Positions 52,459 to 59,385 of a DNA stretch of 64,000 bases are shown here, piece after piece. The DNA comes from Acidimicrobiia bacterium. Its GTDB lineage: Bacteria; Actinomycetota; Acidimicrobiia; Spongiisociales; ZC4RG35. Made by a program: the position numbers and the translations under genes. How positions within the stretch are numbered: the stretch's first letter is position 1; every line of letters begins with the position of its first letter. The notes beneath the pieces are model-generated. The model saw only the letters and a program-made list of their open reading frames with translations. It was not told the origin of the DNA and did not search any database. The stretch is taken from the NCBI GenBank assembly GCA_035544615.1, contig DATKEA010000017.1, positions 1,949 to 65,948 on the forward strand. Reading direction: 5' to 3'.

Positions 52459-53196
52459 TCACTTCTTGCGGCGGAGACCGGAGAGAGCGCTCCGCCACAA
52501 GTAGGCGGTGAAGCTGGGGATCGCCTCTTGTTCCCCGTGGGCCTGGTCGCCGACCGAGGCGGTCGCTTCGCCTTTCTGCGGTGCTTCGATCGAGCGTTCC
52601 CCAGCGGCGCGCATCTCAGCCAATCGCTCTCTGAGGAAGACCGCTTCGGTCTCGGCACGTGCCGCCCTCTCACGGGCTTCGGCCAGCTGCTGACCTGCCT
52701 CGTGGAGGTTGCCCAGTTGGAGCAGCATCTTGTCCCAGGCCGCGATGGGAACGATCATCGTGCCGGGAGGGGGAGTCATCTCAGCGGCCGGTTTCGATGT
52801 GACCACGCCGCGTGCGTCGGCCGTCTCGGGTGGTGGCCCTGCCGGCACGCTCTCCCGTCCCACTTGCGCGGCCCGCGCCCGCACCCCATCCAGGGTGACC
52901 AGGCGGCGAGTCCCGGTCGGTGTCTCGTCGAGAATGCTCGGGATCCGGCCTTTACTGGCCCACTTTCGCAGCGTGGCAATGGGGATCCCGGTTGCCGCAC
53001 TCGCTTGGCGAAGAGTCAGCCAACCCTGGCCCGAAACATGAAGGTCCCCGGCTTGGTCTTCACCGCTGGCGTTCGAGGATGGCTGGCGGGCCGGTGGTGG
53101 GGTTGCCGGGGTGCGAAGCGCCTCGGTCTCCCATAGAAAGGCAGCATCCTGATCAGCCATGTCGTCATCATAAGAACTCTCTGCCGGCGAGATCAT
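52459..53196 (-). CDS. Helix-turn-helix DNA-binding protein (excisionase/MerR-like HTH plus coiled coil), divergent from the BMC locus
   Basis: HTH LTLRQASAATGIPIATLRKWASKGRIP, a Pro-rich linker and a C-terminal coiled coil. Confidence 0.5.
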   Translation of the reverse strand: MISPAESSYDDDMADQDAAFLWETEALRTPATPPPARQPSSNASGEDQAGDLHVSGQGWLTLRQASAATGIPIATLRKWASKGRIPSILDETPTGTRRLVTLDGVRARAAQVGRESVPAGPPPETADARGVVTSKPAAEMTPPPGTMIVPIAAWDKMLLQLGNLHEAGQQLAEARERAARAETEAVFLRERLAEMRAAGERSIEAPQKGEATASVGDQAHGEQEAIPSFTAYLWRSALSGLRRKK

Positions 53197-53251
53197 GGGC
53201 CGTCCCCCATGTTCCTAGGATGGGCCGGGTGAGGAGGCCGCAACCAGCCAC

Positions 53252-53881
53252 ATGACATCGCCCGCCGGCCCGACATCCCCGACCGAACAGGAAGTCCGCA
53301 CCCTGGTCGAGAGTGTGCTCGACGGAGTCCTGGGCTCCGATTCCGATCGGCCGGGGCCGGATCCCGCCCCGCCGACGCCGGCCGGGGCCGACGAGGGAAT
53401 GCCGAAGGCGAAGATCGCGGTGGGTTCAGACCACGGCGGCTACCCGCTCAAGGAGAGACTGGCATTCAAGCTCCGAGAGACCGGCTACGAGATCGTCGAT
53501 TGCGGGACGGACTCGCACGATGCAGTCGACTATCCGGACTTTGCCCACGCCGTAGCCCGAGAGGTGAGCTCCGGATCCTGTCGCTACGGGATCGTGGTGG
53601 ACGGAGCCGGAATCGGTTCGGCCATGGTGGCCAACAAGGTGCCGGGAGTGCGTGCCGCCTTGTGCTACGACCTGTCGTCGGCCCGCAACAGCCGAGAACA
53701 CAACCACGCCAACGTGTTGACCCTGGGAGCCGGGTTGATCGGGGAGGCTCTCGCCTGGCAGATTGTCGAAGAGTGGCTTTCCGTCGAGTGGGGTGGTGGT
53801 CGACACGCCCGCCGGGTTGCCAAGATCGACAACGTGCAACGGCAATACTCCGGGTCCGGCGTGAGTCAGGATCACCATTGA
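53252..53881 (+). CDS. RpiB/LacAB-family sugar-phosphate isomerase with an N-terminal encapsulation-peptide-like extension (BMC cargo)
   Basis: The core [15 protein letters not shown]...[17 protein letters not shown]...GGRHARRV aligns by eye to RpiB. A ~50 aa N-terminal extension carries an amphipathic helix ([16 protein letters not shown]) then a Pro/Gly/Asp-rich linker. An alternative core start lies at 53399. Confidence 0.8.
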
Positions 53882-54711
53882 ATCGCGATGCGTTGGTCGA
53901 GGCGGTGACTCGGGAGGTGATCGCTGCCCTCTCGACTCGCTACGACGTGTGTGACACCGGCGAGAAGGTGCGCGAGGTCGTGGCCAACGGGGTCGACCGG
54001 GTCGCCTTTCACGGCGAGGCGGCCGAGGTGCCCCTGGACATGGCTCGATACATCGATCACACCCTGCTCAAGCCCGAGGCGACGGCTGCCGAGATCGACC
54101 AGCTTTGCCGCGAGGCCGCGCAGTACCGCTTCGCCTCGGTTTGCATCAATCCCACATGGGTGAAGCGCGCGGCGGAGAATCTTCGGGGCACCTCGGTCCC
54201 GGTATGCACCGTGATCGGCTTTCCCCTCGGCGCCGGCACATCGGAGATCAAAGCGATGGAAGCGCGGAGGGCACTCCGTGACGGCGCGCGGGAAGTCGAC
54301 ATGGTGCTCAACATCGGGGCGTTGAAGTCGGGTGACCACAGCCTGGTGCTGAAGGACATCGAGAAGGTTGTCGATGCCGCCCACGAGGTAGGTGCATTGT
54401 GCAAGGTGATCCTCGAGACCGCCCTGCTCACCGACGAGGAGAAAGTGGTCGCTTCGGCCCTCGCCAAGAAGGCCAAAGCGGACTTCGTCAAGACTTCGAC
54501 CGGTTTCGGCCCGGGAGGCGCAACCGTCTATGACGTGGCCCTGATGCGGGAGACAGTCGGGCCCGAGATGGGAGTGAAAGCCTCGGGCGGGGTTCGCACC
54601 ACCGATGACGCGGAGGACATGATCGCCGCCGGTGCTACCAGAATCGGTGCTTCGGCTGGGATCGAGATCGTAGGCGGCAAGGATGGAGGACAAGGTGACG
54701 AGAGGCATTGA
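53878..54711 (+). CDS. deoC: Deoxyribose-phosphate aldolase (DERA) with an N-terminal encapsulation-peptide-like helix (BMC cargo)
   Basis: The core [14 protein letters not shown]...FASVCINP...[10 protein letters not shown]...DMVLNIG...DFVKTSTGF...[10 protein letters not shown] matches class-I DERA. A ~55 aa extension begins [19 protein letters not shown]. The TTG start overlaps the rpiB stop. Confidence 0.8.
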
Positions 54712-55324
54712 GCTGAGGTCGTTTGCGTTCCTGGACAGCCTCCAGCCGCAATACGCAGCATTTCTCGGGACGGTGGCCCAGGGGTTCCTCCCGCTGGCCG
54801 GCGACTCGTCCCTGTGGGTGGAAGTGGCTCCAGGTATCGAGATCAATCGTCTGACCGACGTGGCTCTGAAGGCGACATCGGTCAAGCCGGGCCTCCAGAT
54901 CATCGAGCGCTTCTACGGCGTGCTCGAGGTTCACTCACCGGATCAGGCCGAGACCAGAGCCGCCGGGGCGGCAATCCTCGACGGCATCGAGCTGACCGAG
55001 CACGACCGGATCAAGCCGCGGATCTTGTCGTCCCAGATCATTCGCAGACTCGACGACCATCACGCTCAGCTCATCAACCGGACCCGGCACGGTCAGATGA
55101 TCATCCCGGGCCAGACCCTGTATGTCCTCGAGTGCGAGCCGGCCGCATATGCGTCACTTGCTGCCAACGAGGCGGAGAAGGCAGCGGAGATCAACGTCCT
55201 CGAGGTGCGAAGCTTCGGCTCGATGGGTCGGGTCTACCTGGGCGGAGAAGAGCAGGACATCGATGTCGGGTGGCAGGCAGCGGTGGGCGCTCTGGAAGGG
55301 CTCACCGGCCGTGATGCCGGCTGA
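54695..55324 (+). CDS. BMC-T shell protein, CcmP/CsoS1D type (tandem permuted BMC domains)
   Basis: [28 protein letters not shown]...GIEINR...[11 protein letters not shown]...[28 protein letters not shown] matches the recalled CcmP sequence closely. The GTG at 54695 lies 5 nt after a GGAGG. The ORF-track ATG is at 54683. Confidence 0.8.
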
Positions 55325-55373
55325 GTGAGGATCTGCTTGAGTCAACGACGAAGACAACGAAAGGAGGAGCTTC

Positions 55374-55676
55374 ATGGCTGAAGCTCTTGGCATGATCGAA
55401 ACTCGAAGCTTCTCGGCGATGGTCGAGGCGGCAGATGCGATGGTGAAAGCCGCCAAGGTGGAGCTCGTGGGCATGGAGAAGACCGGTGGTGGATATGTGA
55501 CGGCCGTCGTGCGTGGCGATGTGGCCGCGGTCAAGGCTGCCGTCGACGCCGGTGTCCGGGGAGCGGAGAAGGTGGGTGAGGTCATCTCGACCCATGTCAT
55601 CGCACGCCCACACGTCAACATCGACCTGGTTCTGCCGCTCGGTCGCCAGGACCAGGCGCAAGACGATCTCGGTTAG
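55374..55676 (+). CDS. BMC-H shell protein (PduA/EutM type hexamer)
   Basis: [33 protein letters not shown]... is the canonical single BMC (Pfam00936) domain. Confidence 0.9.
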
Positions 55677-55709
55677 CCCAGCCATCCGTGGGAGACAGGA
55701 GATAGGACC

Positions 55710-56021
55710 GTGCATCTAGGCAGGGTCGCCGGGACGCTGGTCGCCAGTCGCAAGGAATCCCTCATGGAGGGGATGGTGTTCCTCGTCGTGCGTCAACTCG
55801 ACTCAGAGAACGCCGAGACGGGGAGCTATGTGGTGGCGGTCGATACGGTCGGTGCCGGTGTTGGCGAAGTCGTGCTCTACGCCTCGGGCAGCTCGGCGCG
55901 TCAAACGGAATCGACCCGCGACCGACCGGTGGATGCGGTGATCATGGCCATCGTCGACTCCTGGGATGTCGGTGGAGAGGTCCGGTACCACAAGGGTGAC
56001 GAAGAGGCATCGAGCAGGTAG
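55710..56021 (+). CDS. BMC-P vertex protein (EutN/CcmL/PduN family), paralogue 1
   Basis: [15 protein letters not shown]...[22 protein letters not shown]...AVIMAIVD is the EutN_CcmL fold. Confidence 0.85.
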
Positions 56022-56023
56022 CG

Positions 56024-57481
56024 ATGCTGAGCGACACAGATATCCAGGCCATAATCGAGCGGGTCAGGGGCCGGGTCGCCACAGCCGAGACAAACCGACG
56101 GGCGGCTCCGGCTTTGCGTGCCTCCGACGACCTCGCCGTGTCCGATGTCCAGCTCGGGGACGGCATCCATCCTTCCGTCGACGATGCGGTGGCGGCGGCT
56201 GGCACCGCCTTTCTCGAATACCGCGAGATGGGGCTCGAATCGCGCAAGTCGATCGTCGAGGCCATGCGAGCCGCGATGTTGCGGGAGGGGGAGCGACTCG
56301 GGTACATGGCGGCTGAGGAGACCGGCATCGGGAGGGGTGAGGACAAGGCGATCAAGAACCGCCTGGTAACCACCAAGACCCCGGGGCCCGAAGACCTCGA
56401 GCCACAGGTGGTGACCGGTGACGCCGGCATGATGGTCACCGAATACGCCCCTTACGGAGTGATCGGTTCGATCACTCCGACGACAAACCCCACATCCACG
56501 ATCATCAACAATTCGATCGCCATCGTGTCGGCGGGCAATGCGGTGGTCTTCAACGTCCATCCCAACGCCCGGTTGGTATCGGTCGAGAATGTCCAGCTTC
56601 TCAACAGGGCCATCGTCGGGGCGGGGGGCCCGCCGGATCTGGTAACTGCGATACCTCAGCCAACACTGGAGTCCGCGCGCCAATTGATGCAACATCCCGA
56701 CGTTCGCGTGCTCCTGGTCACCGGCGGCCCCGGTGTGGTCAAAGAGGCGCTCAAGACCAGCAAGAAAGCGATAACCGCCGGGCCCGGCAATCCGCCGGCG
56801 GTGGTCGACCAAACCGCCGACATCGACAACGCGGGCCGCGCCATCGTCAGGGGAGCGTCCTTCGACAACAACGTCATCTGCACCGACGAGAAAACCACGA
56901 TCGTGGTCGACACCGTCGCCGACCGTCTGGTGCAGGCGATGATCGCCGCCGGCGCCTACCGGCTCAAGGAGCACGAGCTGAAGCGTCTGGAGCGGGTGAT
57001 ATTCAAGGAGATGGGACCCCCCGGTAAACCGGGAATGATCAACACCGACTGGATCGGCAAGGACGCGGCGAGGATCCTCTCCGAGATCGGGGTCACAGTG
57101 GGGGACGAGGTGAGGCTGGTCGTGGCCGAGGTCCGTCGCGAGCACAACCTGGTCTGGACCGAGCAGATGATGCCGGTGATGCCGGTGGTCCGGGTGAGCA
57201 ATGTCGAGGATGCCATCGACCTCGCGGTTCGCTCCGAGCACGGGTTCCGACACACCGCTTCGATCCACAGCACCAATGTGGAGACGATCACACGCATGGC
57301 CCGCGCGATGAACTGCAGCATTTTCGTGGCCAATGGGTCCAACTTCAACGGCCTCGGAGAAGGAGGCGAAGGCTTCACCTCGTTCTCGATCGCCAGCCCT
57401 ACCGGGGAGGGAATGACCCGGCCGCGTACTTTCTCCAGGGTGCGCCGGGTGACGGTGGTCGGAGCTCTGCGAATTGTCTGA
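56024..57481 (+). CDS. CoA-acylating aldehyde dehydrogenase (PduP/EutE-like) with an N-terminal encapsulation peptide (BMC cargo)
   Basis: N-terminal MLSDTDIQAIIERVRGRV amphipathic helix, a ~30 aa linker, then the AldDH core (GIHPSVDDAVAAAGTAF ... ITPTTNPTST ... catalytic Cys region NNVICTDEKT). Confidence 0.85.
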   Translation: MLSDTDIQAIIERVRGRVATAETNRRAAPALRASDDLAVSDVQLGDGIHPSVDDAVAAAGTAFLEYREMGLESRKSIVEAMRAAMLREGERLGYMAAEETGIGRGEDKAIKNRLVTTKTPGPEDLEPQVVTGDAGMMVTEYAPYGVIGSITPTTNPTSTIINNSIAIVSAGNAVVFNVHPNARLVSVENVQLLNRAIVGAGGPPDLVTAIPQPTLESARQLMQHPDVRVLLVTGGPGVVKEALKTSKKAITAGPGNPPAVVDQTADIDNAGRAIVRGASFDNNVICTDEKTTIVVDTVADRLVQAMIAAGAYRLKEHELKRLERVIFKEMGPPGKPGMINTDWIGKDAARILSEIGVTVGDEVRLVVAEVRREHNLVWTEQMMPVMPVVRVSNVEDAIDLAVRSEHGFRHTASIHSTNVETITRMARAMNCSIFVANGSNFNGLGEGGEGFTSFSIASPTGEGMTRPRTFSRVRRVTVVGALRIV

Positions 57482-58076
57482 CGGAGCGCAGGCGGTCGCC
57501 CTATTCGAGTTTGGCTCGATCAGCGCGGGGATCGTCGCCGGTGATGCAATGGTCAAGGCCTCTCCGCTGGGAGCCATCTATGCCGGAACCGTGCACCCCG
57601 GCAAGTATCTCGTGTTGGTCACCGGAGACACGGCCAGTGTCGCCATGGCTGTCGATGTCGGGAACGATGTGGGGCGGGAGGCGGTAAGCGACGTTGTGTT
57701 CCTCGCCGATATCCACCCGTCCGTTCCCCAGGCGATTCGGGGCAATAGCGCCCGGGCGCCGGTGGGTGACGAGGCTCTCGGCGTCGTGGAAACCTCTTCG
57801 GTGGCCGCGGCCGTGGACGCCGCCGACGCCGGGGTCAAGGCTGCCGACGCCCGGCTCGCCGCCATCAGACTGGGCGACGGTTTGGGGGGAAAGGGCTATG
57901 TCCTGTTCACCGGGATGGTGGCGGAGGTCGAGGCGTCGTTGGAGGCGGCGGTGGCCCGCGCCGAAGGTCACGGGACGCTGGTGCGCTCCGATCTGATTGC
58001 GCAGCTTCACGAGGAGATGGCTGACAACCTGCGCGCTGACCTCAATTTCATGAACCGGGTCTCCGGGAGTCGATGA
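57474..58076 (+). CDS. BMC-T shell protein, PduT-like (tandem canonical BMC domains)
   Basis: Two BMC repeats (ALFEFGSISAGIVAGDAMVKAS...; ALGVVETSSVAAAVDAADAGVKAADARL...). The PduT Fe-S Cys position is His here (HPGKY). Confidence 0.75.
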   Translation: MSDGAQAVALFEFGSISAGIVAGDAMVKASPLGAIYAGTVHPGKYLVLVTGDTASVAMAVDVGNDVGREAVSDVVFLADIHPSVPQAIRGNSARAPVGDEALGVVETSSVAAAVDAADAGVKAADARLAAIRLGDGLGGKGYVLFTGMVAEVEASLEAAVARAEGHGTLVRSDLIAQLHEEMADNLRADLNFMNRVSGSR

Positions 58077-58077
58077 G

Positions 58078-58356
58078 ATGCAACTGGGCCGTGTCCTAGG
58101 AAGCGTCGTCGCCACCAAGAAGTCCCCGGGTCTGGAGGGAGTCCGGCTTCTCATCGTCCAGCCTCTCGACAAGACCCAGCAGCCAAAGGGCGAGAGCGTG
58201 GTCGCTGCCGACGCAGTGTCCATGGCCGGCCCCGGCGAACTTGTGTACTTCGTTGCCTCGCGGGAGGCGGCCGAGGCTCTGCCCGAGCGGTTCGTGCCGG
58301 TCGACCACGCCGTGGTGGGCATCGTCGATCAGATTCACCTGGAATCCGGCCGATGA
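58078..58356 (+). CDS. BMC-P vertex protein, paralogue 2
   Basis: MQLGRVLGSVVATKK...AADAVSMAGPGELVYFVASREA...VVGIVD. Confidence 0.85.
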   Translation: MQLGRVLGSVVATKKSPGLEGVRLLIVQPLDKTQQPKGESVVAADAVSMAGPGELVYFVASREAAEALPERFVPVDHAVVGIVDQIHLESGR

Positions 58357-58640
58357 AGGTGGGTCGGGTTGCGGGGACTGTCGTGTCCACGATCAAGGTT
58401 CCGGTTCTCGACGACCACCGGCTCCTTCTCTGCGATATCGAGGACCTGAAGGGAAGTTCGGTGGGCTACACCATCGCCGTCGACGTGGTCGATGCCGGCG
58501 TGGGCGACAAGGTGCTCATCCTCGACGAGGGCAGCTCGGCCCGTCAGATCCTCGGCCTCGAATGGGGTGCGATCCGGGCAGTGGTGGTGGGCATCGTCGA
58601 TCAGTTGGTCGTGGAGGGCGCGGTGCGGGGGCTCGACTAG
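58353..58640 (+). CDS. BMC-P vertex protein, paralogue 3
   Basis: MKVGRVAGTVVSTIK...AVDVVDAGVGDKVLILDEGSSAR...VVVGIVD. Overlaps the preceding BMC-P (ATGA). Confidence 0.85.
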   Translation: MKVGRVAGTVVSTIKVPVLDDHRLLLCDIEDLKGSSVGYTIAVDVVDAGVGDKVLILDEGSSARQILGLEWGAIRAVVVGIVDQLVVEGAVRGLD

Positions 58641-58842
58641 CGGAAATGTTTCGCCAAGTGCGGAGCTTCGGTTTGAAACCCGGAATAGCGGGTAAGAGCG
58701 CCGACCCGATCAACACACCTTGAATTGACACCGATCAGAATTGCCGGGGCGGATCAGGGAGAAGCTCCTCCCTCCATCAGTGAGCTACGAGCCCTCACGC
58801 CGCCCGATCCGCCCCGGCGATCAACGTCGGATCGGGCCGGCC

Positions 58843-59385
58843 ATGCAAGACCATGACTTCCGTGCCCATCTCCGTGCCGCCCGTGCCGGGGATGAGCCTG
58901 CCTGGTGGGCCCTTTATCACTGGCTCGCTCCTCAGGTTCTCGGGTTTCTCCGTGGCAGCCGGATTCCCGACCCCGAAGACGTCCTCGGTGAGGTCTTCCT
59001 CGAGGTGGCTCGCCGAATCGATCGATTTCGGGGCGACGCGCGAGGGTTCAGGGCTTGGGTGTTCACCATTACACGGGCGCGTCGCGTCGACGAGATTCGG
59101 CGGCGCGTCCGGCGTCGGGAAGACCCGCTCGACACCGGGTCTCACGATCTGTTGCCCGCTCCCCTCGATGTCGAGGCCGAGGCGCTCGCCATGGTCGGGC
59201 TGGAAGAGTTGATCGGCCTTCTCGACCAACTCACCGACGATCAGAGCGAAGTGCTGGTATTGCGGGCTATCGGTGGTTGGACAGCTCGTGAGGTGGGAGA
59301 GATCACCGGTCGTAGCACCGGATCCGTGGAGCAACTGCAACACCGGGCGACCCGGGCGCTGAGAGAGCTTCTCGACGAGGCGTAA
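58843..59385 (+). CDS. ECF-subfamily RNA polymerase sigma-70 factor
   Basis: Region 2 (FRAHLRAARAGDEPAWWALYHWLAPQVLGFL ... DVLGEVFLEVARRIDRF) and region 4 HTH (EVLVLRAIGGWTAREVGEITGRSTGSVEQLQHRATRALR). The ORF-track start at 58741 is probably too long. Confidence 0.75.
   Translation: MQDHDFRAHLRAARAGDEPAWWALYHWLAPQVLGFLRGSRIPDPEDVLGEVFLEVARRIDRFRGDARGFRAWVFTITRARRVDEIRRRVRRREDPLDTGSHDLLPAPLDVEAEALAMVGLEELIGLLDQLTDDQSEVLVLRAIGGWTAREVGEITGRSTGSVEQLQHRATRALRELLDEA

Follow-up and report, generated by a model that had tools for sequence, protein, structure and literature searches.

Do the enzymes encoded among microcompartment shell genes at positions 53252–58640 of this stretch of Acidimicrobiia DNA carry genuine N-terminal extensions, and would those extensions serve to bring the enzymes into the shell? 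The stretch, hereafter the window, comprises 64,000 nucleotides of contig DATKEA010000017.1, and the enzymes are an RpiB-like protein (RPI), DERA and an acylating aldehyde dehydrogenase (AldDH), for each of which an earlier note had claimed an amphipathic N-terminal helix translated from an upstream start codon. In our reading, 53252–58640 is very probably a compact SPU-type microcompartment operon of Acidimicrobiia, in which translation of each enzyme begins at the upstream start, giving an N-terminal helix of ~17–19 residues that would act as an encapsulation peptide, a targeting role that we infer from sequence. The enzyme genes and their parts are given below with window positions; column entropies refer to aligned homologues, and dN/dS (the ratio of non-synonymous to synonymous substitution rates) was computed against three orthologous loci, for which dS is ~1–2 and synonymous sites are saturated.

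53252..53881 (+): gene for the RpiB-like protein (SPU RPI), 209 aa, from ATG 53252; Pfam LacAB_rpiB at aa 55–192
53285..53335 (+): putative encapsulation-peptide helix of RpiB, aa 12–28; entropy 0.48 bits, dN/dS 0.10–0.25, AlphaFold2 helix at 12–23
53336..53407 (+): hypervariable Pro/Ala/Asp/Gly linker of RpiB, aa 29–52, with the non-conserved ATG 53399 inside it; entropy 2.72 bits, variable length, disordered in AlphaFold2
53878..54711 (+): gene for DERA (deoC), 277 aa, from a TTG start; Pfam DeoC at aa 56–262
53884..53934 (+): encapsulation-peptide-like N-terminal helix of DERA, aa 3–19; dN/dS 0.08–0.21, AlphaFold2 helix at 3–20
53935..54039 (+): second part of the DERA extension, a conserved element, aa 20–54; entropy 0.35 bits, dN/dS 0.07–0.09
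54706..54708 (+): last DERA codon, CAT (His277); Tyr in 120/120 homologues
56024..57481 (+): gene for acylating AldDH (PduP/EutE type), 485 aa; Pfam Aldedh, best PDB match 5jfl
56030..56086 (+): putative encapsulation-peptide helix of AldDH, aa 3–21, SDTDIQAIIERVRGRVATA; conserved consensus, dN/dS 0.12–0.20
56087..56164 (+): moderately variable linker of AldDH, aa 22–47; entropy 1.10 bits, vs. 0.42 bits for the core

Conservation of the extensions and their association with shell genes

All three enzymes have ~50 extra N-terminal residues. The Pfam cores begin at aa 55 in RpiB, aa 56 in DERA and aa ~50 in AldDH; the alignable part of solved RpiB and DERA structures starts at aa 48–56 (at 37 for the archaeal DERA 1n7k), and that of solved AldDH structures at aa 47, or at 23 for three microcompartment-type 5jfl-like chains. 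The sequences and coordinates that the earlier note quoted for the three enzymes are correct.

The three extensions are real protein, translated and under constraint. GC content by codon position (0.76/0.41/0.87 for the DERA extension and 0.71/0.49/0.78 for that of AldDH) matches that of the coding cores, and the helix dN/dS values listed above stand beside values of 0.05–0.14 for the adjacent cores. M1 is invariant in 48 aligned RpiB homologues. Database gene calls within the clade include the helix in 117/120 cases for DERA, 117/120 for RpiB and 112/120 for AldDH, the AldDH helix being truncated at VKGRV in 8/120. The closest database proteins are labelled as deriving from Acidimicrobiia metagenome-assembled genomes (MAGs), among them P0241, an NCBI AldDH that is 100% identical to the window protein and labelled Acidimicrobiia MAG; P0001 represents the 277-aa form of DERA in public databases, identical save for its last residue (...ERY). 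The expectation that automatic annotation would probably miss the extensions therefore fails for this clade. Such misses are real in other clades and already published: in every SPU DERA the N-terminus is extended and includes an amphipathic helix, and automated start sites often leave the extension out (PMC11585597).

Column entropy is 0.48, 0.49 and 0.72 bits in the helices of RpiB, DERA and AldDH, respectively, vs. 2.72 bits in the RpiB linker. The succession of helix, linker and core is textbook in RpiB, with a conserved block (MTxPAGPxSPSEQEVRSLVERVLDGV[IV]G) followed by a Pro/Ala/Ser/Asp-rich linker and then by the core (0.29 bits). In AldDH, the helix consensus L[SD][DE]xEI[QR]xII[DE]RVKGRVAAAE is conserved and the linker is moderately variable; in DERA, the second element is itself conserved.

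Eighty DERA loci from many phyla were compared, with shell genes scored in the retrieved DNA. In each of the 38 shell-linked loci, the DERA core is preceded by 57 or more stop-free codons; the N-terminal helix was recovered by a strict pattern in 30/38, and the AGAxR motif is present in 34/38. Shell genes are absent from the 7 loci in which the extension is missing (mostly with 4–22 stop-free codons; Bacillus, Planococcus and Macrococcus, with 4–7, and others). The RPIs of shell loci show an analogous helix and low-complexity linker. As for AldDH, the window-type loci encode the N-terminal helix, which is missing from the Anaerolineae-type (mostly Chloroflexi) loci; this split matches the published case of SPU6, the only SPU subtype in which the AldDH peptide is C-terminal rather than N-terminal (PMC11585597). 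In the window AldDH the helix is N-terminal, and the C-terminus ends at the core (...VVGALRIV). The extensions are specific to microcompartment-type (SPU-like) homologues, and occur in related SPU loci both orthologous and distant. The claim that all three enzymes bear N-terminal helices resembling encapsulation peptides is upheld by this pattern of conserved, translated helices in shell-linked homologues.

The same claim had assigned a regular hydrophobic periodicity to each helix. In comparison with the PduP, PduD, EutC and EutE peptides, the hydrophobic pattern of the RpiB helix (#..##..##..##) has the doublet spacing of the PduD peptide, and the AldDH helix resembles the PduP, EutC and EutE peptides; the DERA helix fits less regularly. 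A looser form of the spacing was found within the first 32 residues of 8/51 putative genes of the window: of the eight, two are RpiB and AldDH, and four are accounted for by signal peptides or membrane segments. A scan of the Eisenberg moment over the first 80 residues did not single out the proposed helices.

Several observations weigh against assigning the helices a role as encapsulation peptides translated from the upstream starts. Compared with composition-matched shuffles, the hydrophobic moments of the window helices are not significant (p = 0.10, 0.32, and 0.14); however, validated PduP, PduD, EutC and EutE peptides fail the test equally (p = 0.06–0.44), so amphipathicity alone proves nothing and we counted the result neither way. 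The AlphaFold check proposed in the earlier note (AlphaFold2, run with shallow alignments of close homologues) placed helices at the expected positions, at residues 3–20 and 28–35 of DERA and 12–23 of RpiB, the latter followed by disorder, but at low confidence: predicted local distance difference test (pLDDT) scores are ~30–76 across the extensions, ~50–76 in the helices and <50 in DERA aa 20–54. The DERA extension is also without the poorly conserved linker that is usual in encapsulation peptides, and the Shine–Dalgarno-like GAGGAGG of rpiB lies 14 nt from ATG 53252, which is longer than ideal. As judged from the homologue alignments, the non-chance evidence for the helices is evolutionary.

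In the mechanism that we propose, each helix would bind the luminal face or the tile interfaces of the shell, or would aggregate with other cargo helices, thereby nucleating an enzyme core. [quoted passage not shown] Deletion of the extension of a Chloroflexi DERA relieves aggregation and gives soluble protein (PMC11585597), and in SPU-type archaeal microcompartments peptide-tagged enzymes are recruited to shells, whereas deletion variants are not (PMC12747264).

The DERA extension and the RpiB-like protein

The ~40 aa that separate the DERA helix from the core had been taken for a spacer, but they form a conserved element (0.35 bits, vs. 0.29 bits for the core) that is shared with RPI–DERA fusions. 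The entire 54-residue extension approaches core-level conservation (0.35–0.49 vs. 0.29 bits). Representatives of 400–530 aa, which is the length of RPI–DERA fusions, match DERA from query aa ~28, and aa 28–54 are retained internally in these fusions; thus, the second half of the extension appears to be a structural element attached to DERA rather than a spacer. On these alignments, DERA aa 20–54 belongs to the SPU-type DERA fold and is not a linker, the same conclusion that Dwyer et al. drew on the second element for the SPU3 chimera (PMC11585597). The helix of Chloroflexi SPU-type DERAs typically reads L[VI]E.[IV]T[RE]EVL, with variants in Acidobacteriota and Bacteroidota. Residues D141, K176, and K205, taken as catalytic by motif and without alignment to the E. 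coli enzyme, are invariant among homologues.

It is possible, although somewhat unlikely, that the DERA extension works chiefly as a module for structure or cargo aggregation, serving oligomerisation or core nucleation, instead of a shell-targeting peptide followed by a passive spacer; the helix might then serve enzyme–enzyme contacts only. The near-core conservation (including the dN/dS of 0.07–0.09 for aa 20–54), the retention of aa 28–54 inside RPI–DERA fusions, a Cys-rich motif in this segment of many homologues, and the published observation that the extension makes DERA insoluble or aggregating (PMC11585597) all agree with such a module. Yet the first 19 residues resemble the other two peptides and published encapsulation peptides, a module of this kind would be compatible with shell binding, and in SPU-like archaeal systems Flav+DERA without its peptide is no longer recruited to shells (PMC12747264). 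We favour a DERA helix that acts as an encapsulation peptide, with a conserved structural element behind it.

The Cys-rich motif consists of at least three Cys just upstream of the V..VV.AGA.R[IV] motif, and was seen in 38/73 extension-bearing DERAs (e.g., DACIDCKGACAAHC and ECAGCGQC). The patterns are of the form C-x2-C-x3-C(-x3-C), and occur in loci L010, L011, L012, and L075, and in many of L014–L082. The clade of the window (L004–L009) has lost the segment, with no more than one Cys left (53935–53960 in the window, DVCDTGEK). The Cys-rich segment may be a metal or iron–sulfur site; it is unmentioned in the main text of Dwyer et al. (2024; PMC11585597). The RPI–DERA fusions of L028, L053, L060, and L080 have an encapsulation-peptide-like helix between the two domains (e.g., LSPDDIQRIAERIRQLIG), which agrees with the published proposal that an internal helix replaces the peptide in SPU3 chimeras.

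At its other end, the window DERA terminates in ...GDERH (CAT, TGA; 54706–54711), vs. Tyr in 120/120 of the closest homologues (82–100% identical). Tyr is likewise the last residue of most distant SPU-type DERAs in the alignment that are full-length, and the change to His is a single T-to-C difference at 54706. The C-terminal Tyr of DERA participates in catalysis. His277 may reflect strain variation, a change that inactivates the enzyme or a miscalled base.

In the RpiB-like protein, Asp117 and Ala119 stand where C. thermocellum RpiB (3he8) has its catalytic Cys and Thr, with ICGTG replaced by VDGAG (53600–53608), and both residues are invariant in 48 homologues. Substitution of this Cys (E. 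coli Cys66) by Asp is found in all SPU RPIs, whose encapsulation peptide is of the typical N-terminal kind; SPU RPI shows negligible isomerase activity and forms a stable 1:1 complex with DERA (PMC11585597). Replacement of the catalytic Cys by Asp117 fits a role as adaptor or scaffold. By extension from Dwyer et al. (2024), the RpiB-like protein of the window probably partners DERA as an adaptor or scaffold and does not work as an isomerase.

The RpiB and AldDH helices (53285–53335 and 56030–56086) have a near-identical consensus: SEQEVRSLVERVLDGV for the former vs. SESEIRSIIDRVKGRV for the latter. They share the motif SExE[VI]RS[LI][VI][ED]RV, whereas the DERA helix is of another type; this difference hints at two contact classes, and the cargo core may contain two classes of contact.

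A second alternative, which we regard as rather unlikely, is that some helices bind the shell and others do not, with the degenerate RpiB-like adaptor carrying DERA along as a 1:1 complex and the three helices mainly zipping together. This arrangement gains from Asp117/Ala119 in place of the catalytic Cys/Thr, from the same substitution, stable RPI–DERA complex and negligible isomerase activity of SPU RPIs (PMC11585597), from the near-identity of the RpiB and AldDH motifs beside a different DERA helix, and from the existence of RPI–DERA fusions. However, DERA retains its own conserved helix even beside RPI, and SPU5 loci have the DERA extension yet no RPI (PMC11585597). An encapsulation peptide on each of the three enzymes remains our preferred reading.

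Many SPU-type RPIs of Chloroflexi and Acidobacteriota (L063, L070, L037, L014–L020, L049 and others) have a conserved module of ~45 aa before the RPI core, with the pattern ITExDL..[LV]..G..[FL].[IV]..GA[LI]VTPLAR..A..R.I.L, preceded in some (L063, L070, and L037) by an N-terminal helix. The module is absent from the window RpiB, and a Pfam scan of it matched no family.

Start codons and other readings of the extensions

ATG 53252 is the first in-frame start of rpiB after the upstream stop, and ATG 56024 is the first start of the AldDH frame, 8 codons after an upstream in-frame stop. TTG 53878 of deoC overlaps the rpiB stop (aTTGA), as had been claimed, with AGGA 6 nt upstream; orthologues L001–L003 have ATG at this position. 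In-frame ATGs are also found inside the extensions, at 53399 in rpiB (Met50) and at 54040 in deoC (Met55); the latter had been placed at about 54041. Met50 was found in 0/120 RpiB homologues, and Met55 is replaced by Leu in 19/120 DERA homologues. With the extensions also present in related SPU loci, neither outcome that the earlier note had named as refuting it was seen. The upstream starts of the earlier note are real, as indicated by the ATG of the orthologues, the dN/dS values and the fact that the internal Met codons are not conserved.

It is scarcely credible that the extensions are untranslated, with 53399 and 54040 as the true starts and the DNA upstream of them a leader or intergenic sequence. 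The two in-frame ATGs exist and the distance from GAGGAGG to ATG 53252 is long, but Met50 is missing from 120/120 RpiB homologues and Met55 has given way to Leu in the 19 DERA homologues, the extensions have a dN/dS of 0.07–0.25 and coding-like codon-position GC, and M1 and the helix are invariant or almost so. Downstream starts would also leave a gap of 160 nt, whereas other genes of the operon lie ≤~50 nt apart or overlap. The downstream-start model is rejected on the ATG of the orthologues at the TTG site, the low dN/dS and the non-conserved internal Met.

Equally far-fetched is a role of the helices as membrane-targeting or secretion signals, which we reject: N-terminal amphipathic helices are able to bind membranes, but these are acidic or zwitterionic, lack a hydrophobic core, a twin-arginine motif and a signal-peptidase site, are confined to homologues linked to shell genes, and are quite different from the N-termini of the four signal- or membrane-like proteins of the window.

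In ~40% of related AldDH gene calls (P0274–P0357; L001 and L002), the protein is 494–504 aa long, with an extra basic leader (MARSGTTRxRRxxLDRS) before the helix. The window AldDH is without this leader, which is excluded by the stop 8 codons upstream of ATG 56024. In the relatives, the leader may be genuine, or the gene call may reach too far upstream, into the preceding BMC-P gene.

Operon setting and comparison with known microcompartments

According to open reading frame calls and a Pfam scan, 53252–58640 on the + strand is a tightly packed operon of nine genes, in the order RPI, DERA, BMC-T(dp), BMC-H, BMC-P, AldDH, BMC-T(s), BMC-P, BMC-P. The shell genes (PF00936 and PF03319) are interleaved with the three enzyme genes, in an order that is kept in orthologous loci, and include a triplet of PF03319 (BMC-P) genes that begin at 55710, 58078, and 58353. 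The features beyond the enzyme genes are as follows.

54683..55324 (+): BMC-T of the CsoS1D-like double-stacking type, 213 aa; weak Pfam BMC match, orthologues annotated PF27545 CsoS1D_N
55374..55676 (+): BMC-H hexamer shell protein; PF00936, E = 6.5e-30
55710..56021 (+): BMC-P pentamer shell protein, one of three; PF03319, E = 1.3e-28
57474..58076 (+): BMC-T shell protein with tandem BMC domains; PF00936 twice
58078–58356 and 58353–58640 (+): second and third BMC-P genes; PF03319
58648–58666: terminator-like hairpin, 3′ of the operon

Neighbouring genes overlap at four junctions (4 nt at rpiB/deoC, 29 nt at deoC/BMC-T(dp), 8 nt at AldDH/BMC-T, and 4 nt at BMC-P/BMC-P), which suggests that cargo and shell genes are translationally coupled. 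The locus and its flanks (nickel superoxide dismutase, methionyl-tRNA synthetase, EamA and a helix-turn-helix gene) are syntenic in relatives. A divergent gene with weak MerR/HTH_17 matches (52459–53196, − strand), 55 nt upstream of rpiB and likewise syntenic in relatives, is a candidate regulator, which would stand in for the GntR gene found in the SPU6 locus that has been studied. An extracytoplasmic-function-type sigma factor is encoded 3′ of the operon (58741–59385, + strand); it is present in the same place in L003, and not in L001 or L002. A sigma-70 promoter scan of 52900–58900 gave no match, a result that is uninformative for an actinobacterium.

The SPU type has been defined by Axen (2014; PMC4207490), Sutter (2021; PMC8217296) and Dwyer, Sutter and Kerfeld (2024; PMC11585597), and its signature enzymes are DERA and RPI, present in >280 loci from 26 phyla (PMC8217296; PMC11585597). 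Because DERA and RPI define the type, they are not the unusual cargo for which they had been taken. The central idea is already published for the whole SPU family (2024; PMC11585597), and the operon of the window is an ordinary new example from Acidimicrobiia; slight novelty may lie in the lineage together with the flavour of the locus, which combines a minimal enzyme set, an N-terminal AldDH peptide and both BMC-T types. The locus thus offers little new biology, confirming the published rule on SPU cargo peptides in a lineage of Actinomycetota. It has value for annotation, in the correct starts at ATG 53252, TTG 53878, and ATG 56024, and its short, well-delimited peptides (17–19 aa) might be used as tags that direct proteins to engineered SPU shells. 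Follow-up is likelier to pay off for the Tyr-to-His change in DERA and the lost Cys-rich module than for the main claim.

Among SPU subtypes, PduS is found in all but SPU6, PTAC (phosphotransacylase) in SPU1, SPU4, and SPU7, RPI is missing from SPU5, and RPI–DERA fusions occur in part of SPU3 (20 loci) (PMC11585597). No PduS, PTAC or triosephosphate isomerase gene was found within ~7 kb of the window operon; PduS and PTAC were likewise not seen in 44–64 kb of the window or within ±7 kb in orthologues, and RPI is present and unfused. The minimal enzyme set is similar to that of SPU6, but the AldDH peptide is C-terminal in SPU6; with its N-terminal AldDH helix, the window locus is not SPU6. The studied SPU6 locus also has a GntR gene, vs. 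the MerR/HTH_17-like candidate regulator of the window. The same locus type is common to L004–L012 and L075, and L013, on a short contig, looks alike. That the Acidimicrobiia loci represent an uncatalogued SPU subtype (an SPU6-like minimal set of RPI, DERA and AldDH in which the AldDH peptide is N-terminal, together with BMC-T(dp) as well as BMC-T(s)), with the Cys-rich DERA module recently lost in the closest relatives of the window, is a conjecture to which we give little credence.

In other respects the locus shares the known features of SPU systems: DERA (PF01791), RPI (PF02502) and AldDH (PF00171); a triplet of BMC-P paralogues, which is typical of SPU loci (PMC11585597); BMC-T(dp) in a locus without phosphotransacylase; an RPI with Asp for the catalytic Cys, a helix and a variable linker; a DERA with a helix and an extra element; and an AldDH peptide that is N-terminal, as in all subtypes except SPU6. 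The host lineage, Acidimicrobiia (Actinomycetota), differs. The lengths differ from those of the Chloroflexi SPU proteins studied, with 54 vs. ~70 aa for the DERA extension and 24 vs. ~75 aa for the RPI linker, and unlike many SPU DERAs that of the window has no Cys-rich segment.

With the PduP, PduD, EutC and EutE peptides, the window helices share a length of ~17–18 residues, an N-terminal position before a linker and catalytic core, and the doublet spacing i, i+3, i+4, i+7, i+8, which stands out most in RpiB and AldDH; the helix of AldDH (DIQAIIERV) is very similar to those of EutE and EutC (DIEQVVKAV and QIEEIVRSV). The cargo differs, being DERA and an RpiB-like protein, as does DERA in having a conserved element instead of a flexible linker. 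The N-terminal encapsulation peptides of Pdu and Eut were reportedly described by Fan et al. in 2010 and Aussignargues et al. in 2015.

The SPU-type microcompartments of Hodarchaeales (PMC12747264) have in common with the window a core of DERA and AldDH and predicted terminal encapsulation peptides. Peptide-dependent recruitment to shells has been shown there by experiment. The archaeal systems are further distinguished by the fusion of DERA to a flavoprotein domain, by another set of shell proteins and enzymes (citrate synthase–PTAC and others), and by their archaeal host.

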